DNA of 64,000 bases from an uncultured bacterium. GTDB lineage: Bacteria > Hydrothermota > Hydrothermia > B15-G9 > WFZT01. Position 1 is the first letter of the stretch. Every line of letters starts with the position of its first letter. A program made the position numbers and the translations under genes. Below, piece by piece: positions 3,706 to 36,604 of the stretch. The notes under the pieces were generated by a model. That model saw only the letters and a list, made by a program, of their open reading frames with translations. It had not been told where the DNA came from and made no database searches. Where the stretch lies: positions 11,738-75,737 of the forward strand of contig CAYNMM010000047.1 of assembly GCA_964398355.1 (NCBI GenBank), given 5' to 3'.

Positions 3706-4077
3706 TTACTCCTTTCTTATTGCATTTTCTATGTATCTTATCTCGACTCTGTCCTTATTAAATTTTACACCAATTACATCAAATCTCAAATCATAGTCAT
3801 GAAATTCCGGGTGTGACTCAACGTAAAGGAGTGCAGTATTCAACAACTTATTTACCTTTGCAGGTCCAATTGTCTCAACTGGATCCATCTCCATTTTATC
3901 ACTCGAAAAACTCCTTACTTCAACAAATACGAGTGTGTGTTTCTTCTTGACGATAATATCAATCTCTCCACCCCTCCATCTGAAATTTCTATCAACGACC
4001 CTATATCCTTTATTCATCAAAAATTTCAGGGCAACATCCTCCCCTTTCCTGCCTCTATCAACCCTGGAATTTCTCAT
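3706..4077 (-). CDS. yraN: YraN-family (UPF0102) endonuclease
   Basis: 123 aa with GEIDIIV...VFVEVRS core typical of YraN. 4-nt ATGA overlap with the upstream GWxTD gene. Confidence 0.65.
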   Translation of the reverse strand: MRNSRVDRGRKGEDVALKFLMNKGYRVVDRNFRWRGGEIDIIVKKKHTLVFVEVRSFSSDKMEMDPVETIGPAKVNKLLNTALLYVESHPEFHDYDLRFDVIGVKFNKDRVEIRYIENAIRKE

Positions 4078-5369
4078 TGTCCCCGTATTTCCTCTTCAGA
4101 AATGTATCTCCTCCAATCAGGCAACCCGGGTTCATCCTTATTGGTTGAGTATATGAGTTTATAATCACCATTATTTTGAATATCTGCAAAGATGAAAACC
4201 CAATTTTCGTTGTAATAGTACCATTTCTCCATATCGGGACGTGGGCCTTCCATTGAAACTCTCTTTATCTCATCAGGTTCTCCATACTTTATCAATATTC
4301 TACCGCGATCCGTATATCTTCCCTTTTTATGGAATCTTGTATATTTCCTGTCAGCCTCTTTCACCCTTGCAATAAACTCCTCAAGAAACTCGTTCTCCGG
4401 TGTTTTCGGATCTGGATCTCTCCTGGCCCAGAATTTCTTCAAAAACAAATATTTTGCCTTCTCGTCTTTAATCTGATGATACTTTTTAAGCTCTGTCGGA
4501 CTGGCAATGTAATCAATGAATGAGATGTAATCCATTAATTCCGGAGAAATTTCCTTCTCACCAAAGGTATAGTAAAAAGGTGCTTCAATCTGAACATGCT
4601 TCTTGTGTGACAAATCTGTAAAATCAAGAACCAATGAGTACTCCCCCTCATCGTTAATGCCATCCAGTAATATTGCTCCTACACCAACATGTTTTTTATC
4701 AATCTTTATCACTTCTGGAGAATTTCTAAGGATAGGAGTACCATCCTCTCGATAAATCAGTGCATTTAATACAGCTGTGCATGTATCTTTACTGTAAATT
4801 TCGTAAAAATAAAGTAGTGTATCCTTCTGTGGGCTATAACTTCTAACAGGATTTGGTATAAAACTCAGGCCATATTTGAAAAAATCAGGTATAGTATCTT
4901 TTGTGACATTCCACAAAAATTCTATATCAGAGGTAAGGAGGGGGGCTGAAGTATCTCCATGAGATATGGATATAGTTGTATCTATAACACCTTTAGAACC
5001 ATTTAAGGAATCTTCAACAACAAATCTTACGTGATATTCTCCAGAGGTAACAAGAAGAGAGAGCTGGTCAATTAGATAATTCTGTCCTGTCCTGGCAGAG
5101 ACATGCTGTTTCCAGTGTTGCTCAACGGGTTTCTTTCCTTTCGATTCAAGGAAGAAATTGTATGTTATTGTCCTTTGACCTGAGGTGTCACTCGAGAAAC
5201 CTTGAAGTTCAACAAGGTAGTAAAACTCCAGTTTTTTGATTCCGGGAGCCTCATTAAAAACGGCATGGTCAAGATAAAATCTGATAGGCCCCTGGCTGAC
5301 TATTATGTTACTTGCATGAGGGAAACTAATTAATCCTGTCAAAAAGATCAGGTGGATAATAAAGTTCAT
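4074..5369 (-). CDS. secreted GWxTD-domain protein (paralogue 2)
   Basis: Start placed at Met12 (MNFIIHLIFLTGLISF, signal-like) with GGAGG RBS. C-terminal domain KKFWARRDPDPKTPENEFLEEFIARV...YTDRGRILIKYGEPDEI...WYYY matches the GWxTD (TIGR04514-type) domain as recalled. Confidence 0.55.
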   Translation of the reverse strand: MNFIIHLIFLTGLISFPHASNIIVSQGPIRFYLDHAVFNEAPGIKKLEFYYLVELQGFSSDTSGQRTITYNFFLESKGKKPVEQHWKQHVSARTGQNYLIDQLSLLVTSGEYHVRFVVEDSLNGSKGVIDTTISISHGDTSAPLLTSDIEFLWNVTKDTIPDFFKYGLSFIPNPVRSYSPQKDTLLYFYEIYSKDTCTAVLNALIYREDGTPILRNSPEVIKIDKKHVGVGAILLDGINDEGEYSLVLDFTDLSHKKHVQIEAPFYYTFGEKEISPELMDYISFIDYIASPTELKKYHQIKDEKAKYLFLKKFWARRDPDPKTPENEFLEEFIARVKEADRKYTRFHKKGRYTDRGRILIKYGEPDEIKRVSMEGPRPDMEKWYYYNENWVFIFADIQNNGDYKLIYSTNKDEPGLPDWRRYISEEEIRGQ

Positions 5370-6465
5370 AATCTCCAAAACCTCCTCGATCAACAAAAAC
5401 AATGGTGAGATTTTTTTCGTAATAATACCAGACCTGATAAGGGAGGGTATTTATATCAAATGGATGACTATCAATCTCATCTGGAGGCCCGAGTTTAATA
5501 TAAACCCGCCCCCGATCCGTCAGGGAACCAAGGAAACGCCCGATAGAAAAATGCTCATTTGCGTAGGTAACCCTTTCGACAAACTCTTCCTCAAGTTCGT
5601 TCTCCGGAGTCCCTGGTGTGGGATCGTGTTTTTTCCAAAACTCTTTCCATAGTTTCATCTTTTCACCAGGTGGTGCCTTCTCTATCTTTTTCACTTCACT
5701 ATAAGGAGCTACATAGACAAGAGCAGGGATGTAATTGTCGAGATTTCCAATCAACACACTCCCACCTTTTTTGAAGATAAAAAAGCCATTTCTAACAAAT
5801 CTTTTATTTTTATCAAGAACGATCTCAAACTTTGCTACATACTTACCTCTGCGTAGCGTATCCGGCATTTCAAATGATATATCAAAGGAGCTGGTCCCCA
5901 TCTTTCTTATAACAGGTGTTAAGACAACCCCCTTTATAGGGACATTAAAAGATTTTTCCTCTTCACAAAGCTCAACCTTTGCCTCTATTCTGTGGAAGGA
6001 TTTACTCACAAGAAACCTGAATCGAATACTGTCTCCTGAGAATGATGGCCAACTTACAGTGTCACCGTTGACAGGTACTGGATCACTCAGACACTCGTTA
6101 TCAAAGCAATAATTTTTTAATTTTTTTACCTCTTCATGTTCAAAAATAGTCTCTCCTGTTCGTGAATTACTAACTTTGAGTTTAATCTTGAACTTATCAA
6201 GCTTCCTGATTCTGAATCTTTCAACCTTGATGAAAGGAGACGGTGTGGTAGTGTCAAATTTCACATACCAGAAATTTCCATATATAACATCCTTTTTCCG
6301 GTCAATTTCAGCTGCTATCTCTGCGGTACCTCTCGATTTCACGCTAATAAACTGTGAGGGAACTAACGCGGCAGCAATAAAAATTTCGATAGAATCCTGG
6401 CCAATGGGGGCTACATAAACATAGGCCTGAGATTTAAAAAGAGATAGTAAAAGAAACAGTAACAA
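5326..6465 (-). CDS. secreted GWxTD-domain protein (paralogue 1)
   Basis: 379 aa, TTG start directly abutting the htpX stop, signal-like N-terminus. C-terminal FWKKHDPTPGTPENELEEEFVERV...LTDRGRVYIKLGPPDEI...WYYY is the same domain as the downstream paralogue. Confidence 0.55.
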   Translation of the reverse strand: MLLFLLLSLFKSQAYVYVAPIGQDSIEIFIAAALVPSQFISVKSRGTAEIAAEIDRKKDVIYGNFWYVKFDTTTPSPFIKVERFRIRKLDKFKIKLKVSNSRTGETIFEHEEVKKLKNYCFDNECLSDPVPVNGDTVSWPSFSGDSIRFRFLVSKSFHRIEAKVELCEEEKSFNVPIKGVVLTPVIRKMGTSSFDISFEMPDTLRRGKYVAKFEIVLDKNKRFVRNGFFIFKKGGSVLIGNLDNYIPALVYVAPYSEVKKIEKAPPGEKMKLWKEFWKKHDPTPGTPENELEEEFVERVTYANEHFSIGRFLGSLTDRGRVYIKLGPPDEIDSHPFDINTLPYQVWYYYEKNLTIVFVDRGGFGDYELYYPPDLFDRIN

Positions 6466-14473: not shown

Positions 14474-15568
14474 TTAATCAAGTTTTATCGGCATCAACAA
14501 GTATAATAATTCTTCGTTCTCTCTGAAACCGACAGGCTCAATTTTAATAGCCGTGGATGGGTTGTATATACTTATTCTAATCTGCTCAGCATCAAGCTTT
14601 CTCACTATTTCAAGGAGATACTGAGCATTAAAAGCAAGTTTTGTGGTTTCTCCCTGATAAGTAGCATCAACCATTTCATCCCCCTCTCCAACATCAGGTG
14701 AAGAAGCAAAGAGTCTTAAACCATTCGTTGAAAACTCTATTTTTAAAAGGTAGGTCGGGCTTGGTGTAAAGAGAGATAATCTCTTTAGAGCGCTGAGCAA
14801 TTCATCTCTTGTTACAATCGCCACATTTTCGGTTTCTCCGGGAATTATTTCATCATATGGAGGATAAGGTCCTTCAATCTGTCTTGTTACAAGAAAAGAG
14901 TCTTTGAAAAACATACCGAGAGAATCCTTAGAAAATCTAACGTTAACCGTCTCTTCATCCTTTGATTTCAGATATTCGAATGTATGTCTTGGAACAATAG
15001 CCTGGATTGTGAAGGGTGATTCCTGCGTCATTTTCCAGAGTCCGAGTTTATGGGAATCTGTAGCAACAAGACGGAGTTCATTTTCTCGAAAATCGAGAAG
15101 TACACCCGTAAGAAATGCACGTGGGTCCTCTTTAGCTGCACAAAATGATACATAATTGCTTCCCCTGATCAGAGCGTCAGTAGAAACACTTGTTCCATCT
15201 GCTTCGTCAAATGTCTTAAAAGAGGGGAAATCTTCAGGATCAAGACCTGTTAACGTATATTCTCCCTTATCAGTTTTCATCCTTGTTGCACCGGAAGAAT
15301 GTTCGAAAGTTATCGTTATGGGTGGTAAAGTCTGAACAATATTCAGTATCAATTTTCCAGGAAGAGTAAACGAGCCATTTTCAGAGTCGTAAACAGGGAT
15401 CCAGCTTCTAATTGAGAAATCGAGGTTGGTGGCTGAGATGTAAAGTTCTCCATCTTTTACTTCAAAGAGCAAATTGTTTAATATGGGTAATGTAGTTCGG
15501 GTAGGTAATGCTTTGGAGACTTCCGACAGAGCTCTTTCAAACAACATTTTGTCAACGACAAATTTCAT
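14474..15568 (-). CDS. dnaN: DNA polymerase III beta sliding clamp
   Basis: 364 aa, MKFVVDKMLFERALSEVSKA...LPILNNLLFEV typical DnaN N-terminus. Confidence 0.9.
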   Translation of the reverse strand: MKFVVDKMLFERALSEVSKALPTRTTLPILNNLLFEVKDGELYISATNLDFSIRSWIPVYDSENGSFTLPGKLILNIVQTLPPITITFEHSSGATRMKTDKGEYTLTGLDPEDFPSFKTFDEADGTSVSTDALIRGSNYVSFCAAKEDPRAFLTGVLLDFRENELRLVATDSHKLGLWKMTQESPFTIQAIVPRHTFEYLKSKDEETVNVRFSKDSLGMFFKDSFLVTRQIEGPYPPYDEIIPGETENVAIVTRDELLSALKRLSLFTPSPTYLLKIEFSTNGLRLFASSPDVGEGDEMVDATYQGETTKLAFNAQYLLEIVRKLDAEQIRISIYNPSTAIKIEPVGFRENEELLYLLMPIKLD

Positions 15569-15695
15569 ATTAAATCCTCCACATCAGTTTCTTTAATAAT
15601 TTTAAAAATATCTGTTTTCGTTGTTGTAGAGTGTTGAAATTCTATTAAAGTCGTTCCACCTGCTTGTCTTATTTGATGTGGAAATACTGTGAAAA

Positions 15696-17048
15696 TCATT
15701 TTTCACCGAACAGTAGGTCAATTACGTTATCTATATTTTCTTTGAATTTCGGATCTGTGTAAAACAAAAATTTCCCTTGCTCGTAACTGTGGATAATTGT
15801 TGAGTGATCTCTTCCTCCGAGTGCTCTTCCGAGTTTTTTGTATGGTACATTCAAGCGGACTCTTGCAACGTAGACAAATGCATGTCTGGCTTTCATTACC
15901 TGGGCTTTTCTCGTCTTTCCCGCAATTAATTCTTTTGGTACATTGAACACGTCAGATACCACCTTCATAAGTTCGTCAAGCTCAACGGGGTTTTCATCAT
16001 GATTAAAAGTTTTTAACAGATCGACCAGGAAATGCTTCGTTATTTCTCTTCCGTCAAACTCCTGTTTGGCTTTTATGGCATTTATTATCCCTTCAAGGTC
16101 CCTTATGCTCTTTATGGGTTTATAAGCGATATAATCAACATATTCATCTTTCAGTAGAATATTTTCGCTTTTAATCCTTTCCAGGATAAATTTCTTTCTC
16201 AATTCAAAATCAACTGGTTTGATTTCAGCTACAAGGCCAGATCTCATTCGAGTACGAATCCTTTCATCAAGGGAATCAATTTTCTCCGGGCTTCTGTCAG
16301 CGGCCAGTACGACCTGTTTATTAGATCTCATTAATGAATCAATGGTGTGGAAAATCTCTTCTTGAATCATAGGTTTTGAATTGAGAAATTGGATCTCATC
16401 TATCAGGAGTATATCGATATCTCTGATTTGAGCTTTGAATTTGATCATAGATTTGCTTTTGATAGCATTGATCATCTTGGTCAGGAATTCCTCAGCAGTT
16501 ATGTAAAGAATCTTGTAATCTGTTCTGGAATTAACGAGGATATGGTTTCCAATAGCATGTAACAGATGTGTTTTTCCAACGCCAGACGGTCCGTAGATAT
16601 AAAGTGGATTAAATTTCTTTACAGGATTTTTAGCTACTTCGTAAGCGCTTTTATACGCAAATTCATTGGATGGTCCAACAACAAAATTGTTGAAACTCAG
16701 ATTTTTTATTAATCTGAATTTTTTGAATTTGTCCCCGGATTTTTGTTTCTCTTCCTTTTCTTCTTCCATGATTTCTTCACTTTCGTTTAAAGAGAAGCTA
16801 ACGGATATTTCCCCGTCGGTAACAAGCGAAACTGCTTTTTTAACTTTATCGAGATAATGATGTTCCACCCACTCAATATAGAACTCGTTAGGTGCCCCAA
16901 GGTATAGGGTATCATTCATCAAGCCGAGAGGCTCAAGATCGGAGAACCATGCCATAAAAGTTTTTTCACCAACGAGCTCTTTGAGAATTTTTGATGCATT
17001 TTCCCATATCTCAATAGCTTTGTCTGGTTCACTTAAACTTCTTACCAT
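15696..17048 (-). CDS. dnaA: chromosomal replication initiator DnaA
   Basis: 450 aa. Walker A GPSGVGKTHLLHAIGN, AAA+ core, C-terminal DNA-binding domain. Confidence 0.95.
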   Translation of the reverse strand: MVRSLSEPDKAIEIWENASKILKELVGEKTFMAWFSDLEPLGLMNDTLYLGAPNEFYIEWVEHHYLDKVKKAVSLVTDGEISVSFSLNESEEIMEEEKEEKQKSGDKFKKFRLIKNLSFNNFVVGPSNEFAYKSAYEVAKNPVKKFNPLYIYGPSGVGKTHLLHAIGNHILVNSRTDYKILYITAEEFLTKMINAIKSKSMIKFKAQIRDIDILLIDEIQFLNSKPMIQEEIFHTIDSLMRSNKQVVLAADRSPEKIDSLDERIRTRMRSGLVAEIKPVDFELRKKFILERIKSENILLKDEYVDYIAYKPIKSIRDLEGIINAIKAKQEFDGREITKHFLVDLLKTFNHDENPVELDELMKVVSDVFNVPKELIAGKTRKAQVMKARHAFVYVARVRLNVPYKKLGRALGGRDHSTIIHSYEQGKFLFYTDPKFKENIDNVIDLLFGEK

Positions 17049-17361
17049 AAAACAAACCTCCTTTTTTCAACATTGATGTGGAAAAACCCTTGATTGTCAC
17101 CCTGTGTAATATTTGAAAAAATCCAGTAAACACTGTCATTTTCGACTTTAAAGAACATAGGCTAACTCCTTTATGGTGAACATAGTTTTTGATATTGTCA
17201 ACTTCATTCTGAAAGTCCAGTTTTTGCTTACATTTACAATTGAGTAGAAATTATAAGCTTAAATAATGAAAAATACATGCTTTTGTGTTCATATTTGTAT
17301 CAATTCAATTAAAATTTTATCCCTTACCGACATCAACTCTCCGTAATTTTGTGCAAATTCG
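17049..17361. other. candidate oriC (AT-rich dnaA upstream region with DnaA-box-like TGTGGAAA/TTATCCC motifs)
   Basis: 313-bp ORF-free AT-rich region 5' of dnaA, flanked by divergently transcribed genes. Contains TTGATGTGGAAA (17073-17084) and TTATCCCTT (17317-17325). Confidence 0.5.
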
Positions 17362-18447
17362 TTGAAAAAATTCCGCCTAAAGTGTAATTTAACTCTCATG
17401 GAAATATTTCCATACGAAGTGGTTTATAAGCATTTCATTCCGAAGAACGAACTGGTGACGGAAGACGGTGCCTACTTTATTGGGACGTTTAGGAATGATC
17501 CAGACACGGAAGCAGAGGACCTTTCAAAAGAGCTCCTTTCGCTTAATTTTGTGCCTGTCATTCGAAAAACGCCTGAGGGGTATTATGAAATTTTTGTTAG
17601 AAAAGGGGGGTATATACCACCTGAGAGGCACTGGATCAACATTATTTTATTTCTTTTAACTATCGTCTCTACGCTCGTTGTAGGTGCTCTACATGCTGGT
17701 ATGAATCCACTTAAAAACCCGGCGAATCTGATTTACGGTGTCCCTTTTTCACTATCTCTTATTGCTATTCTTGGTAGCCATGAGCTTGGTCATTACACCC
17801 TATCAAAAATTCACAAAGTCCGGGCTACTTTACCGTATTTTATCCCTGTTCCGCATCCACTTGTTGGTACTCTTGGGGCTTTTATAAAGATAAAATCCCC
17901 TATCCCATCTCGTAGAGCACTGCTTGATATAGGTGCAGCTGGTCCATTAACAGGTTTTATTGTTGCCATTCCTATAACTTTTATTGGGTTAAAACTATCC
18001 GCGGTTGTACCCAAATCCTCAGCTGGTGGCTTGTTTCTTGGCGAGCCTTTAATTTTTAAATTCCTCTCTTTTATAGCTGGTATCCACGTACCTTCCAACA
18101 TGGATCTTTACCTTCATCCGATGGCGTTTGCTGGATGGATAGGCTTCTTTGTTACAGGATTGAATCTCATCCCCATAGGACAGCTTGACGGTGGACACAT
18201 CTCCTTTGCTCTCTTTGGTAAGCATCATACAAAGATAGCTTTTGCCTCTCTTTTTGCTCTTGTCGCACTCGGTTTTCTATGGGCTGGATGGTGGACCTGG
18301 GCGATACTCGTCGTAATTCTTGGCCTAAGACATCCTGCACCTTTAAACGAAGTTTCCCGTCTTGATCGCAAGCGTCTCCTCATTGGTATTATTTCTATTC
18401 TGATTTTTGTCCTTACTTTTATCCCGCGCCCGTTTTTTGTCAAATAA
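17362..18447 (+). CDS. site-2 protease family (M50) membrane metalloprotease
   Basis: HELGHY (HExxH) and LDGGH motifs in TM context. Start ambiguous (TTG 17362 or ATG 17398). Confidence 0.7.
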   Translation: MKKFRLKCNLTLMEIFPYEVVYKHFIPKNELVTEDGAYFIGTFRNDPDTEAEDLSKELLSLNFVPVIRKTPEGYYEIFVRKGGYIPPERHWINIILFLLTIVSTLVVGALHAGMNPLKNPANLIYGVPFSLSLIAILGSHELGHYTLSKIHKVRATLPYFIPVPHPLVGTLGAFIKIKSPIPSRRALLDIGAAGPLTGFIVAIPITFIGLKLSAVVPKSSAGGLFLGEPLIFKFLSFIAGIHVPSNMDLYLHPMAFAGWIGFFVTGLNLIPIGQLDGGHISFALFGKHHTKIAFASLFALVALGFLWAGWWTWAILVVILGLRHPAPLNEVSRLDRKRLLIGIISILIFVLTFIPRPFFVK

Positions 18448-18502
18448 AAGTTGATAGATTGAAAGTTTTAGCTAAAAATTTACAAAAATGGAGGTTTTTG
18501 AA

Positions 18503-19087
18503 ATGCAAGAAGAATTAGGAGGCTGGGAAGCCCTTCTTGGAATGGAAGAATCCGAGGAAAATTATGGAATTTTTGTGTTGATTGAAAAATTCGATGAGTC
18601 TAACTTTGAAAAATGTACAAGACTGATTACCCCGGCACTGAGTTTGAAGGATGAACTTGGTCACCCGGTGAGCCTGATTTTAATAGGTAATACAACTGAT
18701 GGAGATATTGAAAAGCTGAAGGCTTTTCCTGTTTCTACGATACATGTGAAAAAGCTTCAGAAACCTGATGAAACGCTTGATTTCCTGAAGGAATTTATTT
18801 CTGAAATTAAGCCATTTGTTCTCATCGGTAGCTCGGATGGAATAGCTTCGGACGTGTTCCCTTATCTTGCACAATCTGATGATGTCGGGTATCTTGGCGG
18901 TGGTATTCAGCTGAGTCTTAATTCTGAGGATAATAAAATTCTTGTTAAAAGGAAAATTTACGGTGGATTGTTGATTGAAACGGTGAAAAATTTGAAACAG
19001 GGAGTCCAATTTGTTACTCTTAGATCGGATTACTTTGAAGAGCCAATGGGTGGAGAAAATACCGATGTGGAGGTGAAAACCTGGTGA
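18503..19087 (+). CDS. ETF-alpha N-terminal-domain-like protein (no FAD-binding C-domain)
   Basis: About 194 aa. PFVLIGSSDGIASDVFPYLAQSDDVGYLGGGIQL...RKIYGGLLIETVK is collinear with the ETF-alpha domain I pattern (PDLVLxGATSxGRDLAPRxAARL...RPxYGGK). Start at second ATG with GGAGG RBS. Stop overlaps the panB GTG start. Confidence 0.45.
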   Translation: MQEELGGWEALLGMEESEENYGIFVLIEKFDESNFEKCTRLITPALSLKDELGHPVSLILIGNTTDGDIEKLKAFPVSTIHVKKLQKPDETLDFLKEFISEIKPFVLIGSSDGIASDVFPYLAQSDDVGYLGGGIQLSLNSEDNKILVKRKIYGGLLIETVKNLKQGVQFVTLRSDYFEEPMGGENTDVEVKTW

Positions 19088-19905
19088 AGAAGGTCACCGT
19101 GCGTACTTTTATAAAGAAAAAGAAAGAAGGCGAAAAGATAACAATGCTTACTGCTTATGACTACCCATCTGCCAGACTACTTGATGAGGCTGGCATCGAT
19201 GCAATACTTGTTGGCGATTCTCTGGGTATGGTTATTCAAGGTCATGAAACTACACTTCCTGTGACAGTTGAAGAGATGCTCTACCATGTGAAAGCTGTAA
19301 GACGTGGTGTCAGGAGAGCGATGGTTATTGCTGATATGCCATTTCTTTCCTATCAGGTTAGTGAGCAAGAGGCTGTGAGAAATGCTGGATTGATGCTTAA
19401 AGAAGGTGGAGCAGATGCTGTCAAGCTTGAAGGTGGTCGCCGTATCGCTCCCCTCGTAAAAAAGCTTGTGGAAACTGGTATTCCTATCATGGGTCATATT
19501 GGATTAACCCCACAGTCTGTCCATGTCTTCGGTGGCTACAGAGTTCAGGGACGGACAGAGGATGATATAAGAAGATTAAAAGAGGATGCAAAAATACTTG
19601 AAGAATCAGGTGTCTTTTCAATTGTACTGGAAAGTGTACCTGTAGAGGTAGCAAAAGAAATAACTGATAGTCTTTCTATCCCCACAATCGGGATTGGGGC
19701 TGGATCCCACACTGATGGCCAGGTTCTTGTTTTTCATGACTATCTTGGGTTGTTTGAGGATATCAAGCCAAGGTTTGTTAAACGTTATAGAGAACTCGGG
19801 AAGGAGATCATTCAGGCTACAAAGGAATATATTGAAGATGTTAAATCCGGGAAATTTCCCGCTCCAGAGCACTCTTTTTTCCTCGATAAACTGAAAAAAG
19901 ATTGA
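19084..19905 (+). CDS. panB: 3-methyl-2-oxobutanoate hydroxymethyltransferase
   Basis: 273 aa. ITMLTAYDYPSARLLDEAGIDAILVGDSLGMVIQGHETTLPVTVEEMLYH matches the PanB core. GTG start. Confidence 0.9.
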   Translation: MKKVTVRTFIKKKKEGEKITMLTAYDYPSARLLDEAGIDAILVGDSLGMVIQGHETTLPVTVEEMLYHVKAVRRGVRRAMVIADMPFLSYQVSEQEAVRNAGLMLKEGGADAVKLEGGRRIAPLVKKLVETGIPIMGHIGLTPQSVHVFGGYRVQGRTEDDIRRLKEDAKILEESGVFSIVLESVPVEVAKEITDSLSIPTIGIGAGSHTDGQVLVFHDYLGLFEDIKPRFVKRYRELGKEIIQATKEYIEDVKSGKFPAPEHSFFLDKLKKD

Positions 19906-19953
19906 AAAATTAAACACCTGTCTTATCCTATGAACCAAAAAGGAGGTTTAGGT

Positions 19954-20436
19954 ATGGAGTTCAAAATTGTTAAAGTAGAGAAACCTGAAGAAGTGAATGT
20001 CATTCTTGGACAATCCCATTTTATAAAAACTGTTGAAGATCTCTATGAAGCTCTTGTTACAAGTGTTCCTGGCATTAAATTTGGTCTGGCTTTTTGTGAG
20101 TCATCCGGTCCACGACTTGTAAGATGGGCTGGTAACGATGACGAGTTACTTGAACTTGCCAGGAAGAATGCTCTAAACATAGGTGCAGGCCATTCTTTCA
20201 TCATCCTTCTCCGCAACGTATTCCCTATCAATGTTATGAAGGCCATCAAGAACGTAGATGAGGTTGTAAATATATATGCTGCAACTGCAAATCCCCTTGA
20301 GGTTGTGATTGCAGAAACAGAACAGGGTAGAGGAATAATGGGTGTTATTGATGGTGAGCCCCCTCTTGGTGTGGAGGGTGATGAAGATATAGCAAAGCGT
20401 AAAGAATTTCTGAGAAAGATAGGATACAAAATTTAA
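19954..20436 (+). CDS. PF04008/DUF355-like protein (annotated in databases as adenosine-specific kinase family), tentative
   Basis: About 160 aa. [35 protein letters not shown]...[10 protein letters not shown] recalled as this mostly archaeal family. GGAGG RBS. TAATG coupling to the next gene. Confidence 0.4.
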
Positions 20437-22022
20437 TGTCTATAAAACAATTAGAGAAAATTTTACCCCTGCTATTCCTATTCATTTCGTCATGCTCTAT
20501 TACCCCATACTACCACGGAGTAACTGACCAGGGTGCCGTGCTTGTCCCTGTAGAAATAGAAGACACTCTTCTTCCTCGAATACCGGAGAAGAAAGTTGAA
20601 TCTATGAAGAATGTCAACCTGAGTCCAAGGGAAAGTCTTTATGTGGAAATAGAAGAAAAGAAACTCGGAATTTCAGTTCCAGATAACCGCAAGGAAATAG
20701 CTAAATGGATAAAGTACTATTCCAGGAATCCCTTTGGACGTCACTGGCTGAAGGCCTCCATAAAGAGAGGAGCTCCATTCATACCGATAATAAAAGATAA
20801 GCTCAAAAAAGCCGGCTTACCGGAGGAGCTGGCATATTTACCAATTATTGAAAGCGGATTTAAACCACTTGCCCGATCCAGAGCTGGTGCAGTTGGTATA
20901 TGGCAGTTTATCCCTGGAAGTGCAAGGAAGTTTGGCCTAACTGTGAACTGGTGGATTGATGAGAGGCGTGATCCAATAAAGTCTACTGATGCAGCGATCA
21001 AATATTTAAAGGAACTTTACGGAATGTTTGGGAAGTGGGACCTCGCACTTTCTGCTTACAACTACGGTGAAGGCAAATTGAAGAGGAAGATAAAAAGAAT
21101 GAAGACAAATAACTTCTGGAGGTTAAAACGTCGGCTACCACGAGAGACGAGGAACTATGTACCACAGTTTTTTGCGGTCCTCACAATCCTGAATCATCCT
21201 GAAATTTACGGAATTTCTGTTCCCTCTAATCCTGATCCGTTTGTTTATGATTCAGTCAGAATGCCGGGGCCTGTATCTCTCGATGTCGCAGCGAAGTGGG
21301 CAGGAGTGCCTCTTGCTGAGATGGTAAAGTATAATCTGGCCTTCAAGAGAGGTATGGCTCCACCTGATTATCGAAACTACTATTTACGTATACCACCAGG
21401 TACCAGGGATAGATTTGTTGCCAATATGAAAAAGACGCCGAGAAACAAATGGTATACGATAACCTACCACAGGATTCGTAGAGGCGAAAATCTTTATGTC
21501 ATCGCGAGAAGGTATGGTGTTAGCGTAAAAGAATTGATGAGGATTAATAGGATAAGAAATCCAAGAAGAATAAGAAGGGGACGGGTTCTTGTTATCCCGA
21601 TTAGTTCCGGCTATGCCAGATACCTTACAGAAAATGTTGACCTTCAAATTGTAAATAAACATCATGATACACGTGTTGTTTATTATCGGGTGAAAAGGGG
21701 TGATAGTCTCAAACGCATCTCAAGAAAATTTGGTGTTTCCGTAAAAAATTTAAAGAGATGGAATGGTCTGAGGTCCTCGAGAATCAGACCCGGTCAGAAA
21801 TTAATTGTGTATAAAAAAGATGGAAAGACAAATAAGAGACATGTCAGTAAAAGGGGAAAGAAGGAAAAATATTATCCCTATAGAGTCAAGAAAGGTGATA
21901 CACTTTACGATATTTCGTTAAGGTTTAAAGTGGATATCAGAGACCTTATGAAAATAAACAATATAAAGAATCCCCGCCAGTTGAGAGTTGGTACAGTAGT
22001 TAAAATTCCGGCGGATATTTGA
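20436..22022 (+). CDS. mltD: membrane-bound lytic murein transglycosylase D-like (SLT domain + 3 LysM)
   Basis: 528 aa. SLT motif LPIIESGFKP...AGAVGIWQFIPGSARKFGL and three LysM repeats (YHRIRRGENLYVIARRYGV, YYRVKRGDSLKRISRKFGV, YRVKKGDTLYDISLRF). Confidence 0.8.
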   Translation: MSIKQLEKILPLLFLFISSCSITPYYHGVTDQGAVLVPVEIEDTLLPRIPEKKVESMKNVNLSPRESLYVEIEEKKLGISVPDNRKEIAKWIKYYSRNPFGRHWLKASIKRGAPFIPIIKDKLKKAGLPEELAYLPIIESGFKPLARSRAGAVGIWQFIPGSARKFGLTVNWWIDERRDPIKSTDAAIKYLKELYGMFGKWDLALSAYNYGEGKLKRKIKRMKTNNFWRLKRRLPRETRNYVPQFFAVLTILNHPEIYGISVPSNPDPFVYDSVRMPGPVSLDVAAKWAGVPLAEMVKYNLAFKRGMAPPDYRNYYLRIPPGTRDRFVANMKKTPRNKWYTITYHRIRRGENLYVIARRYGVSVKELMRINRIRNPRRIRRGRVLVIPISSGYARYLTENVDLQIVNKHHDTRVVYYRVKRGDSLKRISRKFGVSVKNLKRWNGLRSSRIRPGQKLIVYKKDGKTNKRHVSKRGKKEKYYPYRVKKGDTLYDISLRFKVDIRDLMKINNIKNPRQLRVGTVVKIPADI

Positions 22023-22104
22023 TTTCTAACATTTTTACCTTTTTGATATTTGACAGATTTACAGGTGGAAGGTAAAATTGAACTGAAAAAATGGAGGTGA
22101 TAAT

Positions 22105-23271
22105 ATGAAGAAGGTAGTTGCACTTGCTCTTGTTGTAAGTCTTGTGGCGGGTTTTGGATGGGCAAAACCCAGGAAAGCAAATTTAAAGGGTGCGATCAAG
22201 ATTGGTTTCTTCTCTCCTCTTACAGGATTTGCTGCTGCTGATGGTCTCTCTGCACTTCGGGGTGCTAAACTCGCAGTTGAAGAGATCAACAAAAGTGGAG
22301 GCCTCCTCGGTAAAAAAGTTGTTCTTGTCAATTACGATGACCGTGTAAAGTCCTCCGAGGCTGTTGCAATTGCTCGTAAACTTGTAACAAAGGATAGAGT
22401 TGTTGCAGCAGTAAGTGGCTCGTACTCAGGCCCTACGAGAGCCGCAGCCCCCATATTCCAGCAGTTTAAAATTCCTATGATCTCAGCCTACGCCGTACAT
22501 CCTGAAATTACCAAAGCCGGAAATTATATTTTCAGAAACGGTTTCCTCGGTACAGTTGAAGGGAAAGCTATGGGCGAGGTTGCTCTCAAATTTTTGAGAG
22601 CAAAGAGAATAGCTCTGCTTGTGATCGATAACGACTATGGTCATTCTCTTGCTGAGGGTGTTAAAATGCGGATTCGCCAGCTTGGCGGCGCAAAAATCGT
22701 TTACGAAAAGGCTTATTCCATAGGTGAAAAAGATTTTACTCCACTTTTAACGGCTGCAAAAGCTCAAAAGCCTGATCTTCTAATTGCTACTGCCTATTAT
22801 AATGAGGCCGCTCAAATTGCAAGGCAGGTAAAGCAGATGGGATGGAGGATTCAGATCCTTGGAGAGGAGGGGTATGATTCTCCTAAATTCCTTGAACTTG
22901 CCGGTGATGCAGCTGAGGGTGTTATTATTACGACAAATTTAAACAGGGACGATCTCAGCTCCATAACCCAGAATTTTATCAAGAATTTCAAGGCCAGATA
23001 CAATGAAGATCCTGACATGGTTGGAGCTTCTTCTTATGACGCGATCATGCTTCTTGCGAAGGCCATAAAGAAAGCGCACAGTACAAATCCAGCGAGGATA
23101 AGAGACGCTCTTCAGTCATTACAAAACGAGGTGCTTGCAACAGGTGTCCTCTACAGGTTTACACAGGGAAGGGAAGTGGTAAAGCCTGTCCAGGTGCAGA
23201 TTGTGAAGAATGGAGAGTTCCATTATTATGGTATTATAGCCGATCCTGATGTTGTAACACCACCATGGTGA
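22105..23271 (+). CDS. livK: branched-chain amino acid ABC transporter substrate-binding protein
   Basis: 388 aa, signal peptide, IKIGFFSPLTGFAAADG periplasmic-binding-protein type I start. Confidence 0.8.
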   Translation: MKKVVALALVVSLVAGFGWAKPRKANLKGAIKIGFFSPLTGFAAADGLSALRGAKLAVEEINKSGGLLGKKVVLVNYDDRVKSSEAVAIARKLVTKDRVVAAVSGSYSGPTRAAAPIFQQFKIPMISAYAVHPEITKAGNYIFRNGFLGTVEGKAMGEVALKFLRAKRIALLVIDNDYGHSLAEGVKMRIRQLGGAKIVYEKAYSIGEKDFTPLLTAAKAQKPDLLIATAYYNEAAQIARQVKQMGWRIQILGEEGYDSPKFLELAGDAAEGVIITTNLNRDDLSSITQNFIKNFKARYNEDPDMVGASSYDAIMLLAKAIKKAHSTNPARIRDALQSLQNEVLATGVLYRFTQGREVVKPVQVQIVKNGEFHYYGIIADPDVVTPPW

Positions 23272-23280
23272 TAATGAGGG

Positions 23281-23318
23281 GAGGGGTGCGGTCGAAAAAT
23301 TTTTCGACCGCACCCCTC
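23281..23318 (+). terminator. 38-nt perfect palindromic hairpin between binding-protein and permease genes (intra-operon attenuator/terminator)
   Basis: GAGGGGTGCGGTCGAAAAA/TTTTTCGACCGCACCCCTC read directly. The 3' arm begins with a T-run. Confidence 0.5.
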
Positions 23319-23346
23319 CTATAGATCTTATAAGTCCTTCTTTGAT

Positions 23347-24201
23347 ATGTTACTTCAGCAGATTATAAATGGTCTTGCGTCTGGGGGAATTTACACACTC
23401 GTAGCTCTTGGGCTTACCCTCGTTTACGGAGTTTTAAAAATCTTGCATATTGCTCATGCTGGTATTTATGCTCTCGGTGCCTATATGGCGCTTATTGCAT
23501 ACAAAATTTACCCGAACATTTATTTTGCCTTTTTCTTTGCAATGGTTAGCACGGCCCTGGCCGGTTACCTTGTCCAAAAGTATCTCTACTGGCCAATTAT
23601 TGATCAGCCGAGGATTGTGCCTTTGATTGCTTCAATCGGTCTGTTTCTTGCACTTGAAGAGCTTTACCGTTTGATATGGGGACCATACGTGATACCGTTT
23701 CCACAGAAATTTCACTGGAAGACTTACACAATCGGCAAAATTCGGTTGCCTGGTGCTGATCTTTTTGTTTTTGCTCTTTCCCTGATTTTTCTTGCAATTT
23801 TATACTGGATAGTGAATAGGACCAGGATTGGTCTTGCAATGAGGGCTGTGGCAGATGATAAGGAAGTTGCAGAGGCATCTGGGATAAATTCAAAATGGAC
23901 TATCGCGCTTTCTTTTATTATTGGTTCTGCCCTTGCCGGTGCAGCTGGTCTTATGGTAGGGGTTTATTACAACTCTATTTATCCCACCATGGGAGACGTT
24001 CCTGCTTACAAAAGTCTTGCTGTAATAGTGGTTGGAGGGATGGGGAGTATAGAGGGTACGGTGGTTGCAGGTTTTGGACTTGGTCTTCTCGAAGCCCTTT
24101 TGCTTGGTTTTTTGCCATTTGCTTTTCCCAGGGATGCGCTCGCATTTATTGCAATGATCATTTTCTTACTGATCAAACCGGAGGGATTATTTGGTAGATG
24201 A
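23347..24201 (+). CDS. livH: branched-chain amino acid ABC transporter permease
   Basis: 284 aa polytopic. LivH-like N-terminus LLQQIINGLASGGIYTLVALGLTLVYG. Confidence 0.85.
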   Translation: MLLQQIINGLASGGIYTLVALGLTLVYGVLKILHIAHAGIYALGAYMALIAYKIYPNIYFAFFFAMVSTALAGYLVQKYLYWPIIDQPRIVPLIASIGLFLALEELYRLIWGPYVIPFPQKFHWKTYTIGKIRLPGADLFVFALSLIFLAILYWIVNRTRIGLAMRAVADDKEVAEASGINSKWTIALSFIIGSALAGAAGLMVGVYYNSIYPTMGDVPAYKSLAVIVVGGMGSIEGTVVAGFGLGLLEALLLGFLPFAFPRDALAFIAMIIFLLIKPEGLFGR

Positions 24202-25064
24202 ATTACTACCTGACGATACTGATTTATATTGGGATTAATTCGATTCTTGCTTTAAGTTTGAATATTATTGTTGGTTACGCTGGTCAAATTTCACTTGGTC
24301 ATGCGGCTTTTTATGGGATAGGGGCATACTCTTCAGCTTTGATTGCGACAAAACTTGGAGTATCTTTCTGGGTGGCCTTACCGTCTGCTATAGTCATCAC
24401 TGCAATTGTTGGAGCCATCCTTGGCCTTCCTTCGTTGAGGGTGAGTGAAGATTTTCTTGCAATAACAACAATTGGGATAAATTTTGTTGTCCAGGCTGTT
24501 TTTAAATATGTGAAGTTTTTTGGTGGTGCTCTGGGTGTTAGTGGTATCCCATTTCCGTCTCTGGGTGGTCATAGATTTTCACTCGCTGCTTTTGCCGTTA
24601 TGACAGCTATTTTTACTGTTATTTCTGCCTTAGTGGCCCATTTGATAAATACATCCTGGATAGGATTGGGGTTGAAAGCAGTGAGAGAGGACGAACTTGC
24701 CGCCTCATCCAGTGGAGTAAATGTTTATAAGTTCAAAGTTCTTGCCTTTGTTCTTGGATCTGCCCTTGCCGGTCTTGCTGGTAGTTTGTATGCCCATTTT
24801 ATGATGTTCATAACTGCTGATGATTTTGGGTTTCCACTTTCTATTGCAATACTTTCAATGATAGTGATTGGAGGAATTGGTACGGTAAGAGGCGCCTTCC
24901 TTGGTGCATTACTTCTTACGATTATGCCAGAAGTTTTTCGTCCCCTCTCAGATTACAGAATGCTTGTCTATGCCATCCTTCTCATTCTTTTCATGCGCTT
25001 CCTGCCTGAAGGCTTGATTGGAGACGAAAGTATTGTGTGGAAGAAAATAAGGGGTAAGGCGTGA
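24198..25064 (+). CDS. livM: branched-chain amino acid ABC transporter permease
   Basis: 288 aa polytopic, ATGA-coupled to livH. Confidence 0.85.
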
Positions 25065-25813
25065 GCACGATACTTGAGGTTAAAAATGTAAAAAAGAGAT
25101 TTGGTGGAATTGAAGCTTTGAAAGGTGTTTCTATTGCTCTATCGAAGGGAGAAATTCTTGGTCTTATCGGTCCAAATGGTGCGGGGAAGACAACATTATT
25201 TAACTGTATTGCCGGTGTATATCATCCTGATGATGGGGAGATCCTTTTTAAAAATAGAAGGATAGACATGTTACCACCTCATCGAGTTGCTGAACTTGGT
25301 ATTGCAAGGACGTTTCAGATTGTGAGACCATTTAAAACACTTTCCGTGATTGACAATGTACTTGTCGCATTGGGTTTGAAAAATTATATTGGATACAAAA
25401 ATTTGTTTAAAAAACCTGGAGCCAATGATTTTAAGAAGGCTATTGAGCTCTTGAAAGCTGTGGGGCTTGAGTCCAAAAAAGATGAAGTATCCGAGAATTT
25501 GAGTCTCGGAGAATTGAGGAGACTCGAGGTGGCGAGGGCACTTGCACTTGACCCTGAAATTATTCTTCTTGATGAACCTTACGCAGGTTTGAGGCGCCAT
25601 GAAGAGGGTAGAATTTCAGATATGATCAGGGAGTTACACAGTAGAGGACTCTCTATTATCATTGTGGAACACAGGGTGAGGTTATTGATGGAACTTGTTG
25701 AGCGAGTTGTGGTACTTGATATGGGTGAGCTAATAGCAGAGGGTTCTCCCGATGAAGTTAGGAATAATCCTCGGGTTATAAAAGCTTATCTCGGGGAGGA
25801 AGAGGTTGCTTAG
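25061..25813 (+). CDS. livG: branched-chain amino acid ABC transporter ATP-binding protein
   Basis: Walker [25 protein letters not shown] signature, GTG start. Confidence 0.85.
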
Positions 25814-26507
25814 AGTAGAAGATTTGAATGTTTATTACGATCGATTACATGTTTTGAAAGATATAAACTTTGATGTTAAAGATGGAGAAATTTATGCCAT
25901 AATAGGTGCGAATGGGGCGGGTAAGACTACTTTGTTAAGGTCGATAATGGGTCTGAAAGAAATTGTAAGTGGCAGGATAATTTTTAAAGATAGAGATGTT
26001 ACGTCTTTGAGTGCCCATGAGAGAGCGAGACTTGGTATTTCACTCTCCTTTGAGGGAGGGAGAATTTTGAGATCGTTGAGTGTGGAGGATAATCTGAAGC
26101 TTGGCGCATACCTTGTAAACAGAGAGAAGTACCAGGAGAAACTTGATTTTATTTACGATTTGTTTCCCAGGCTTAAGGAGAGGAGAAAGCAGATAGCAGG
26201 TTCTCTTTCTGGTGGGGAGAGACAGATGCTTTCTATTTCGAGGGCACTTATGAGTGAGCCTTCACTTCTCATGCTTGATGAACCAAGTTTTGGTCTTGCT
26301 CCCAAAATTGTCATAGAGATTTTCCACGTACTGGAAAAATTGAATAAAGAGACAGGTCTTACAATGCTACTTGTTGAGCAGAATGTGAAGCAGGCTTTGA
26401 AAATTGCCTCTCGAGCGATGGTCATTGAAGCCGGTTATGAAGTTACAAGGGGGACACCTAAAGATATACTGAGTAATAAAGAAGTGATAGAAGCCTATCT
26501 CGGCTAA
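25806..26507 (+). CDS. livF: branched-chain amino acid ABC transporter ATP-binding protein
   Basis: Walker [19 protein letters not shown] signature, TTG start overlapping livG. Confidence 0.85.
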   Translation: MLRVEDLNVYYDRLHVLKDINFDVKDGEIYAIIGANGAGKTTLLRSIMGLKEIVSGRIIFKDRDVTSLSAHERARLGISLSFEGGRILRSLSVEDNLKLGAYLVNREKYQEKLDFIYDLFPRLKERRKQIAGSLSGGERQMLSISRALMSEPSLLMLDEPSFGLAPKIVIEIFHVLEKLNKETGLTMLLVEQNVKQALKIASRAMVIEAGYEVTRGTPKDILSNKEVIEAYLG

Positions 26508-34221: not shown

Positions 34222-35268
34222 ATGATCAAAATTGACGGAAGTTACGGTGAAGGCGGTGGCCAGATATTAAGAACTGCCCTTTTTCTATCTCTTGTTACGT
34301 CCACGCCTTTCAAAATATTCAACATCAGGTCCTCTCGAAAGAATCCAGGCTTGAAGAGGCAGCATCTAACTATAATCAGGGCTCTAAAAATGCTCACAAC
34401 TTCTGATGTCGTTGGTGACAAATTGGGTAGTAGGGAATTGGAGTTTATACCAGGAAATATCTTTGGGGGAAATATTGATCTTGATGTAGAAACGGCAGGT
34501 AGTATTCCACTTGTTCTTCAAACCCTCATCCCCGTTCTCCTCTTTGCCCGTAATTCCTCCAAATTGATAGTCTACGGTGGTACTGATGTTTCGGGTGGAA
34601 TGACCATGGATTACATGCATTATGTACTTATACCACATCTCTCCCGATTTGTGAATAAAATCTCCATCAATGTATGGAGGAGAGGATACTATCCGCGGGG
34701 AAATGGAAAGGTAGAGATTGAAATAATCCCACGGTATCACACCTTCGGAGATGTTAGACGTGAAGTTTCTCCGTTGAAGCTTGATTCTTGTGGAAAATTG
34801 AAGTCCGTATCAGTGTATTCTGTTTCTTCAACCAGGCTTAGGGGAAGAAAGGTAGCGGAAAGACAGGTCGAAGGTGTACTGAGGGTCCTTTCAGAATTGC
34901 TTTCGAGAACAGGAATTTCACCCGAAATTTATGTTAGATACGAGAGGAGTTTTTCACCTGGATGTTCCATTCTTATTACTGGCAATCTGGGAAAAAATTA
35001 TACAATTGGTAGCGACGGGATCGGTAAGCTGGGAGTTCCTGCTGAGAAGATCGGCGAGGAAGCGGCAAAGAAGTTTGTTTATGAAATTGAGCAGGGAGCA
35101 TGTGTGGATCGTCACCTCCAGGACAATCTAATCCCGTTCCTTGGAATAGTGGGAGGCAGAATGCGAGTGTCAGAAGTTACCACTCACACGAAGTCCAACA
35201 TCTGGGTAACCGAAAAATTTTTACCCGTGAAATTTGAGGTCAGGGGCAATCTCATCGTATCTCGATAA
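34222..35268 (+). CDS. rtcA: RNA 3'-terminal phosphate cyclase
   Basis: 348 aa. [24 protein letters not shown]-terminus typical of RtcA. Confidence 0.85.
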
Positions 35269-35320
35269 GTCCCTGTCCCGGTCAATTATTTTCCATTATG
35301 ATATTAATCTGGAGGTTAAG

Positions 35321-36604
35321 ATGTTTGAGGAAAAACTTTTTAACACAGATAGAGATATTTTTGAGGCGATCCTCAATGAGACCAGGAGACAGAGTGAAGG
35401 TCTTGAGCTGATAGCTTCGGAAAATTTCACATCTGACGCTGTTCTTGCTGCACTTGGAAGTGTTCTGACCAATAAATACGCAGAAGGTTATCCTGGAAAG
35501 AGGTACTACGGGGGATGCGAATTTGTTGATGTTGTTGAGAGACTTGCGATAGAACGTGCCAGGGAGCTTTTTGGAGCAGAGCATGCGAATGTACAGCCAC
35601 ATTCAGGTTCTCAAGCAAATATGGCTGTCTACTTTGCCGTTTTGAAGCCAGGTGACACCATTCTGTCAATGGACCTTTCCTGTGGTGGTCACCTTTCACA
35701 CGGTAGCAGGGTCTCATTTTCGGGCAAGTTATACAACGTTGTTTATTATGGCGTTGATCGGGAGACGGAGTATATTGATTTTGATGAAGTTGCAAAACTT
35801 ACCAGGGAATACAGGCCAAGACTAATTATTACAGGTTATTCAGCATATCCACGCAGGATAGATTTTGCAAAGTTCAGGGAAATTGCTGATAGTGTGGGGG
35901 CATATCTCATGGCTGACATTGCCCACATTGCGGGGCTGGTTGTGGGGAAAGTACATCCGGATCCGGTGCCTTATGCTCATTTTGTCACTACCACAACTCA
36001 CAAGACTTTAAGGGGGCCAAGAGGCGGATTGATACTAACATCAAAAGAATTTGCAAAAGCCATTGATAAGGCGGTTTTCCCTGGAATGCAAGGAGGTCCA
36101 CTTGAGCATGTTATTGCTGCTAAGGCCGTTGCATTCAAGGAAGCAATGAGACCAGAATTCGTTGAATATCAAAAGAAAATTGTGGAAAATGCGAGAGCAC
36201 TCGCGGAAACATTGCTCTCCAATGGTCTTAGACTGGTTTCCGGGGGTACTGACAACCATCTCATGCTGGTGGATACACGCAGTGTGAAAATGACCGGTAA
36301 GGTAGCTGAAGCGCTACTTGCTGAGGTGAACATCACGGTCAACAAAAACTCTATCCCTTACGATCCAGAAAAGCCTACTGTTACAAGTGGAATCAGAATC
36401 GGGGTTCCTGCAATTACAACCAGAGGTATGGGAAAAGATGAGATGAGAATTATAGGTAAAATCATTGCAGACGTGCTGAAGTATCCTGATGACGAAGAAG
36501 TCAAGAAAAAAGCTCGCAGTAGAGTCCAGGAGCTTGTTAGGGCCTTCCCACTCTATCGAGAAAGAATTGACGTTATGGAAAAAATTGTGGAACTTCAGGG
36601 ATGA
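35321..36604 (+). CDS. glyA: serine hydroxymethyltransferase
   Basis: Start at Met30 of the track ORF (GGAGG RBS). [42 protein letters not shown] motifs. Confidence 0.95.

Follow-up and report, generated by a model that had tools for sequence, protein, structure and literature searches.

A stand-alone ETF-alpha domain I encoded directly upstream of, and overlapping, panB in a compact gene cluster of an uncultured Hydrothermota bacterium

We analyzed a 64,000-nt stretch of DNA from an uncultured bacterium (GTDB lineage Bacteria; Hydrothermota; Hydrothermia; B15-G9; WFZT01; NCBI GenBank assembly GCA_964398355.1, contig CAYNMM010000047.1, forward-strand positions 11,738 to 75,737), hereafter the window, in which a six-frame list of open reading frames (ORFs) and the raw sequence place four co-directional genes at window positions 18503-22022. 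The first of these encodes a 194-aa protein that corresponds to domain I, the N-terminal domain, of the alpha subunit of electron transfer flavoprotein (ETF), and that we call the orphan; it is followed by panB, by a gene of the PF04008 family and by a gene for an MltD-like lytic transglycosylase. The features of the cluster and its edges, in window coordinates, are as follows.

18451..18479, plus strand: promoter-like TTGATA-17 nt-AAAAAT, a 9/12 consensus match within the 55-nt gap that follows the M50 peptidase gene
18490..18494, plus strand: Shine-Dalgarno sequence GGAGG of the orphan, 8 nt ahead of its ATG (18503), invariant in the relatives' alignment
18503..19087, plus strand: ETF-alpha-domain-I-only orphan, 194 aa, with PF01012 only
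18503..18568, plus strand: N-terminal tail of the orphan, residues 1-22 (MQEELGGWEALLGMEESEENYG), a candidate short linear binding motif
19069..19074, plus strand: Shine-Dalgarno sequence GGAGGT of panB, inside Val-Glu-Val codons of the ETF-like gene
19084..19905, plus strand: panB, 3-methyl-2-oxobutanoate (ketopantoate) hydroxymethyltransferase, 273 aa, PF02548/TIGR00222 over its full length
19954..20436, plus strand: PF04008 protein ('adenosine-specific kinase' family), 160 aa, matching the full Pfam profile
20436..22022, plus strand: MltD-like lytic transglycosylase, 528 aa, with SLT, three LysM domains and a lipoprotein-type signal
22050..22078, plus strand: promoter-like TTGACA-17 nt-TAAAAT before livK, an 11/12 match and the best in a 6.5-kb scan

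Domain searches gave clear assignments for all four products. The orphan matched PF01012 (ETF) at 45.8 bits (cut-off 26.7, E 8e-12), which identifies domain I, with residues 45-196 of the ORF 18488/18503-19087 aligned to profile positions 19-175 of 181; it had no Pfam match to the PF00766 flavin adenine dinucleotide (FAD)-binding domain, the protein ending at residue 194, directly after domain I. The longest ORF for this gene begins at 18488, and the alternative ATG at 18503 is favored by the GGAGG 8 nt upstream of it and by gene calls, with all relatives beginning MQEELGG. PanB covered positions 1-258 of the 259 in PF02548 (403.5 bits) and passed the equivalog models TIGR00222 (360.4 bits, cut-off 207.55) and NF001452 (410.7 bits, cut-off 272), while the PF04008 protein covered its profile completely (261.1 bits, positions 1-154/154). 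The product of 20436-22022 carries an SLT domain (104 bits) and LysM over three stretches (164 bits), together with a lipobox that can be read from the translation at the N-terminus (…LLFLFISSC). Its best NCBIfam model was MltD (NF008050, 273.6 bits), and because that score lies below the equivalog cut-off of 508 we name it MltD-like: it shares with MltD the lipoprotein-type signal, the SLT domain and the C-terminal LysM repeats, and differs in scoring under the equivalog cut-off and in having three LysM domains. These results, and the fold search described below, bear out the original prediction, made from the sequence alone, of an ETF-alpha N-domain-only protein of ~194 aa (PF01012 without PF00766), a PF04008 protein at 19954-20436 (261 bits, full profile) and an SLT+3xLysM transglycosylase.

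The junctions are tight, and all three are in the sequence as the original prediction had described them. The orphan ends TGG-TGA with the panB GTG at 19084, giving a 4-nt GTGA overlap; a 48-nt spacer, with GGAGG at 19942-19946 ahead of the ATG, separates panB from the PF04008 gene; and at the PF04008/MltD-like junction (TAATG, 20434-20438) the stop and the ATG share one base. Searches of the 64-kb window with tblastn, using ETF-beta, ETF-alpha and mini-ETF queries (the last described below), found nothing else resembling an ETF, neither an ETF-beta nor a second ETF-alpha nor an FAD domain, in agreement with the earlier claim that no ETF-beta gene is nearby, and no hidden ETF-beta emerged at E<=5 among the window ORFs that have no Pfam match. 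The genes panC, panD and panE (Pantoate_ligase, Asp_decarbox, ketopantoate reductase) are likewise absent among the ORFs of the window.

Expression signals around the cluster were evaluated in the window and in its relatives. The TTGA and AAAAT cores of the upstream promoter-like element and the AAAAATGGAGG that follows are conserved in five diverged relatives (TTGAxA-17-AAAAAT), and 18451..18479 is likely the start of a four-gene transcription unit. No terminator-like hairpin was detected inside this unit or at its 3' end, so that its 3' boundary before livK is only inferred, with the promoter-like site at 22050..22078 as its probable mark. Taken together, the conserved promoter-like element upstream, the promoter-like site before livK and the lack of an internal terminator make a four-gene transcription unit led by the orphan likely. 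A scan of 17000-22500 for riboswitches or leaders in Rfam returned a chance snoRNA match (E 0.49) and nothing else. Within the unit, the GGAGGT embedded in the orphan sits at a constant distance from the panB start in 8/8 of the relatives' junctions, and panB in the relatives begins one codon sooner, with an ATG or GTG that overlaps the last (Trp) codon of the orphan gene and its stop. This embedded ribosome-binding site (RBS) and the overlapping start explain part of the conservation at the orphan C-terminus ('VEVKxW') and, because the orphan carries both, its translation and the expression of panB are physically linked in every relative.

The structure of the orphan supports the domain assignment. 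An AlphaFold2 (AF2) model gave a confident alpha/beta domain over residues 20-194 (mean predicted local distance difference test, pLDDT, 82.8), and a Foldseek search against the PDB placed ETF-alpha chains at the top (LctC, EtfA of several species and the BT 3ih5 N-domain; query TM-score, TMq, 0.74-0.79) with ETF-beta chains lower (TMq 0.59-0.70). A profile search of the PDB with the orphan returned only the N-domains of LctC, CarE and EtfA (7qh2_A, 6fah_A, 5ol2_A, 3ih5_A), and in the profile alignment the C-terminal strand motif KRKIYGGLLxETV of the orphan corresponds to a conserved ETF-alpha strand. The fold and the profile matches therefore confirm the assignment as ETF-alpha domain I only. 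Established ETF structures hold the nucleotide, adenosine monophosphate (AMP) or beta-FAD, in the beta subunit, and their domain I is not flavin-binding; the 'nucleotide-binding' role that had been proposed for the orphan is not suggested by its fold, which is nearer to alpha domain I than to the nucleotide-holding beta.

Comparisons among relatives indicate that the orphan is a real gene under purifying selection over its whole length. The proportion of nonsynonymous differences (pN) was far below that of synonymous differences (pS), at 0.13 versus 0.67 against the relative L013 and 0.20 versus 0.70 in another close pair, where pN/pS is given instead of dN/dS because dS was saturated even between the closest pair. 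The frame of 193-194 codons is intact in 10 of 11 clusters, the eleventh being 164 aa without the C-terminal end, and 62 invariant residues are spread along the fold. The distribution of the gene is narrow: a word-indexed search of 5.8 billion proteins found just 11 clusters at 90% identity (54-100% identical to the orphan), and when 1.84 billion 50%-identity representatives were searched exhaustively with a profile, one cluster alone lay below E 1e-30, the next matches being ordinary ETF-alpha N-terminal domains (E ~1e-11). Relatives that carry the orphan are labelled in genome-collection matches as metagenome-assembled genomes of 'candidate division WOR-3', and since all of them fall in one 50%-identity cluster, the family is confined to one narrow WOR-3 subclade. 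The orphan is also the fastest-evolving gene of its block, with 54-61% identity between relatives compared to 71-93% for M50, panB, PF04008, MltD, livK, dnaA and dnaN in the same genome pairs. The possibility that the ETF-like/panB pair was recently acquired by horizontal transfer was considered and rejected on a coarse composition check, GC content being 0.41 at 18-20 kb and 0.37-0.44 in neighboring 2-kb windows.

Gene order around the pair is identical in five diverged genomes (M50, ETF-like, panB, PF04008, MltD-like, livKHMGF), and the same five keep MurJ and dnaN-dnaA upstream. Wherever the orphan was found, panB was with it, as were the embedded RBS and the overlapping start; no ETF-beta-like gene occurs in the ~12-20 kb annotated around the five relatives. 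Other operons of this genome are similarly compact and functionally mixed: at window positions 34222-38607, RtcA (RNA 3'-phosphate cyclase), SHMT, TenA/THI-4, a DAO-type FAD oxidoreductase and a 150-aa ORF follow one another with 4-8-nt overlaps.

Elsewhere, panB keeps different company. A metagenome scan with the window PanB gave distant panB loci at 49-66% identity among the matches listed, and at 13 of these, again among the matches listed, no ETF-like, PF04008 or MltD neighbor was present. Where neighbors were examined they were panC, a Rossmann+DUF2520 gene or folK, with panC or Rossmann+DUF2520 flanking panB in L019, L020, L026 and L028, whereas the window panB has no adjacent panC, panD or panE and so does not sit in a classical pantothenate operon. 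The panB of L019 has the highest full-length identity among the matches listed (60%), and at this locus (4023-4967) the gene immediately upstream, at a 4-nt gap, is the Rossmann-like + DUF2520 gene, which we take to belong to the family of the alternative ketopantoate reductase PanG. The slot that this gene occupies in L019 is the slot of the ETF-like orphan in the WOR-3 clade. Directly downstream of the four-gene unit in the window lies a complete branched-chain amino-acid-type ATP-binding cassette (ABC) importer, livK-H-M-G-F (22105-26507), with its own strong promoter-like site, and an SHMT gene lies at 35234-36604. Valine is the precursor of alpha-ketoisovalerate, the substrate of PanB, and serine hydroxymethyltransferase (SHMT) is the source of the methylene-tetrahydrofolate that PanB uses; the proximity of livKHMGF to panB could be meaningful or coincidental.

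The second half of the cluster recurs elsewhere. The PF04008 family holds at least 8000 proteins at E<=1e-10, and the organism-level names in the top 120 matches (70-100% identical) are all bacterial, so that the earlier description of the family as mostly archaeal looks wrong, the archaeal share of the family not having been sampled. The window protein is 84-94% identical to its counterparts within the clade and 70-83% identical to proteins of several bacterial phyla, those at 70-76% being named from Hydrothermae, Kryptonia, Gemmatimonadetes, Armatimonadota and WOR-3 among the matches listed. The nearest out-of-clade PF04008 gene among the matches listed (L015/L016, 5954-10084, 83% identity) lies between Amidase_3 and SLT+LysM genes, followed downstream by GHMP kinase, ROK, RuvX and YceG/MltG. 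In another WOR-3 lineage (L017/L018, 8001-9919, 71% identity) the PF04008 gene and an SLT+LysM gene overlap by 4 nt, and the genes around them are quite different; neither panB nor the ETF-like gene is present at the L015/L016 or L017/L018 loci. In Kryptobacter (L032, 5001-6754) PF04008 is followed by an SH3+NlpC/P60 gene, and in two other lineages, an Armatimonadota locus where it comes after hemE-hemH-hemY and the locus L034, its neighbors are unrelated. At L034 (5492-8130), six tandem, mutually overlapping DUF5618 genes of 150-157 aa each stand directly after the PF04008 gene.

Because PF04008+SLT/LysM pairs and panB both occur separately, panB without these neighbors, the four-gene cluster is composite: on this comparison it is best described as an ETF-like + panB set placed before a pre-existing PF04008 + MltD-like pair. 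We are highly confident of this anatomy, a compact, lineage-specific operon joining two separable modules. The original prediction had seen in the cluster an unusual four-gene architecture, and the genes are as it described them; what it took for one arrangement is two modules side by side, of which PF04008+SLT/LysM stands alone elsewhere. The juxtaposition is lineage-specific, in a compacted genome, and the coupling is generic.

PF04008 immediately precedes, and often overlaps, peptidoglycan hydrolase genes in four different neighborhoods (three WOR-3 lineages and Kryptobacter), a pairing that may point to a cell-wall-related role for the family. The function of this family is unsettled: adenosine/AMP binding and phospho-His have been reported for PAE2307 of Pyrobaculum aerophilum, ADPase activity for the Thermus thermophilus protein, and no kinase or phosphatase activity for the Thermotoga maritima protein (PMC10248530). 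The recurrent pairing with peptidoglycan hydrolases is not mentioned in that paper (PMC10248530).

Turning back to the orphan, its best-conserved segment is the N-terminal tail, with the consensus MQEELGGWEAFLGxEExEENYG and with alignment columns 1-23 invariant or near-invariant. This tail is predicted to be disordered (pLDDT below 50 for residues 1-19 in the AF2 model), and its codons differ synonymously among relatives, so that the constraint acts at the protein level. The invariant N-terminal peptide MQEELGGWEAFLG is common to the orphan and to ~350-aa archaeal ETF-alpha-like proteins: a regular-expression scan and an alignment showed the archaeal family opening with MADDLGGWGALY or MSDDGWGFADIYGMDD where the orphan has MQEELGGWEAFLGMEE, an acidic Gly-Trp motif. 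The orphan thus carries, like that family, an acidic (L)GGW/GWGF motif at the extreme N-terminus and then domain I. The archaeal members, labelled Thermoplasmatota or Halobacteriales 'FAD-binding protein' or 'ETF alpha subunit', comprise P0200, P0135, P0157 and ~35 other proteins in which the motif is strongly conserved. Among 124 generic ETF matches of an unbiased profile search only two carried the motif, and both are members of the archaeal family. An hhalign comparison of the orphan with this family aligned residues 1 to 191 collinearly (97% probability), and the motif is predicted to be disordered in the archaeal full-length protein as well (40-sequence AF2 model); disorder in both proteins agrees with a peptide that engages its partner in trans.

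The two groups also differ. The archaeal proteins are 344-364 aa long, retain the C-terminal PF00766 domain and have a ~25-residue linker after the motif, whereas the orphan at 194 aa has neither that length nor PF00766. By eye, the archaeal C-terminal domain differs at several alignment positions from that of a bacterial ETF-alpha (P0012). Identity in domain I between the orphan and the archaeal family is only ~22-25%, no higher than to bacterial ETF-alpha, which leaves either an old relationship or a convergent motif. Since its N-terminal motif and domain I are collinear with the ~350-aa family, the orphan is most simply read as a probable truncated relative of the archaeal-type ETF-alpha; truncation would probably have affected an ETF-alpha-like gene such as those now present in Thermoplasmatota and Halobacteria. 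A search of plasmids found no member of the archaeal family, only ordinary FixB/EtfA under 30% identity.

Compared with known systems, the orphan is a clade-restricted new variant of a known ETF-domain-only theme. With the ETF alpha subunit (EtfA/FixB/LctC/CarE) it shares the fold and detectable sequence homology of domain I, and it differs in having no domain II (PF00766), alpha-FAD site or adjacent ETF-beta, in its extra invariant 22-residue N-terminal peptide, and in a distribution limited to one WOR-3 subclade, always before panB. Ta0212 (PDB 3fet), a stand-alone ETF-alpha-related protein, gave a significant fold match to the orphan and was not found by sequence. The 'mini-ETF' pairs at L011 5417-6549 and L012 944-2133 combine a beta-like protein of 195-214 aa with an alpha-domain-I-like protein of 182 aa; both proteins have PF01012 only, their genes overlap by 4 nt, and they lie directly upstream of a canonical etfB-etfA-fixC set and an acyl-CoA ligase. 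Such a pair resembles an ETF module that consists of the base only and lacks the flavin head domain. The 182-aa mini-alpha ends at the same structural point as the orphan but has its beta-like partner adjacent, and a special kinship between the two was rejected, the mini-alpha scoring no better than generic ETF-alpha. Neither Ta0212 nor the mini-ETF pairs are encoded near panB. Two further short ETF-alpha-domain-I-only proteins, P0015 (203 aa) and P0017 (190 aa), have the same structural end point, and P0015 has an N-terminal Trp-containing extension (…YDFWGAS…). PanZ/PanM, which acts on PanD, shares with the orphan the concept alone, that of a small non-catalytic protein regulating a pantothenate enzyme, and there is no homology: the enterobacterial PanZ has a GNAT fold, binds coenzyme A (CoA) and acts on PanD, not on PanB. 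We know of no protein partner of PanB.

These observations suggest the following mechanism. The orphan would probably be made from the same mRNA as PanB, by coupled translation, and would not be expected to transfer electrons, because the flavin domain is missing and domain I is not flavin-binding on the known ETF fold. It would most likely act through protein-protein contacts, made by the domain-I surface and by the invariant disordered acidic/Trp N-terminal peptide, and so serve as a non-catalytic partner, either scaffold or modulator. Operon anatomy and mechanism together form the overall best explanation, which we hold tentatively and at clearly less than even confidence. PanB would be the single most likely client of the orphan, although the assignment is doubtful, and the most specific form of the idea, in which the truncated ETF-alpha domain is a dedicated, co-translated, non-catalytic subunit or regulator of PanB that docks by its N-terminal peptide in thermophilic WOR-3, we consider unlikely.

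Several points weigh against a dedicated PanB partner. The original prediction had asked for conservation of the ETF-like/panB pair, and the pair is indeed kept in every relative that has the gene; all of these belong to one narrow syntenic WOR-3 clade, and because synteny extends over the entire ~20-kb block in every genome with the gene, this conservation is no independent evidence of a functional link. The start/stop overlaps that had been read as translational coupling are present and conserved, yet overlaps are the default in this genome (11/18 same-strand neighbor pairs in the contig gene calls) and join such unrelated window pairs as SHMT/TenA, FtsX/LysRS and serA/serS. The orphan evolves fastest in the block, which an obligate subunit would not usually do when the enzyme it serves is highly conserved, and PanB itself fits its profile end to end, with no extra segment to hint at a docking site. 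The sharing of the N-terminal motif with full-length archaeal ETF-alpha-like proteins implies a function that probably predates PanB association and is independent of it. Literature searches turned up no link between an ETF domain and PanB and nothing relevant on Ta0212 or on WOR-3 with pantothenate, and the earlier idea of a nucleotide-binding regulator of PanB has adjacency for its argument and no positive evidence.

Of the alternatives, the one that survives best is a possible but likewise doubtful reading in which the orphan is tied to neither PanB nor an ETF and has some other lineage-specific role, for example as a small regulator or adaptor, in a tolerated slot near oriC (see below), the operon reflecting compaction only. 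Its narrow distribution and fast evolution, the default nature of compaction and overlaps, and the mixture of unrelated functions in the cluster and in nearby operons (vitamin synthesis, PF04008, cell-wall hydrolase) all agree with this, but the orphan owns the conserved promoter-like element and the panB RBS and start in all relatives, and purifying selection acts over its whole length. Somewhat less probable, and on balance unlikely, is that the orphan is the alpha half of a base-only ETF module whose ETF-beta-like partner, or an ETF client dehydrogenase, is encoded elsewhere in the genome, the position before panB being incidental. Domain I of ETF-alpha normally pairs with domain III of ETF-beta, the best fold matches come from the alpha chains in EtfAB complexes, nature has short pairs of an alpha-like (182 aa) with a beta-like (195 aa) protein, and the N-terminal motif is common to full-length archaeal ETF-alpha-like proteins; against this, the genes of ETF subunits usually lie side by side, as they do in L011 and L012, yet neither the 64-kb window nor the ~12-20 kb around the relatives has a beta-like gene. 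That the ORF is a pseudogene or a decaying etfA remnant kept as a leader for the RBS/start and promoter of panB is highly improbable and essentially excluded by the selection data, for although the 'VEVKxW' conservation coincides with GGAGGT and the start and the gene is the least conserved of the block, pN is far below pS, frames are intact in 10/11 clusters, the 62 invariant residues run along the fold, the AF2 domain model is confident and the N-terminal peptide is conserved at the protein level.

Two other features of the window were recorded. On the minus strand at 14474-17400, dnaN and dnaA diverge from the M50/ETF-like/panB unit, from which a ~310-nt AT-rich spacer (17049-17361) with several promoter-like matches separates them; this spacer is therefore probably the oriC region, with the cumulative GC-skew minimum lying somewhat upstream of the spacer, at ~6-10 kb. 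Also on the minus strand, at 4074-6465, a pair of neighboring paralogous genes for GWxTD-domain proteins (442 and 379 aa) stands beside an M48 peptidase gene.

As it stands, the finding is an accurately described and mostly ordinary compact operon of an uncultured lineage. If the orphan does bind PanB, an ETF domain would have been put to new use as a subunit, regulatory or scaffolding, of an enzyme of vitamin biosynthesis, and PanB would have its first described protein partner. Such a partner might modulate the first committed step on the way to pantothenate and CoA, and would give CoA synthesis a point of control not known from model organisms. Should there be no link to PanB, the orphan would still be a clean case of a multi-domain redox subunit cut down to a non-redox module that keeps its N-terminal docking peptide. 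The most reusable lead is the pairing of PF04008 with peptidoglycan hydrolases, which offers a testable context for a conserved, widespread family of disputed function.

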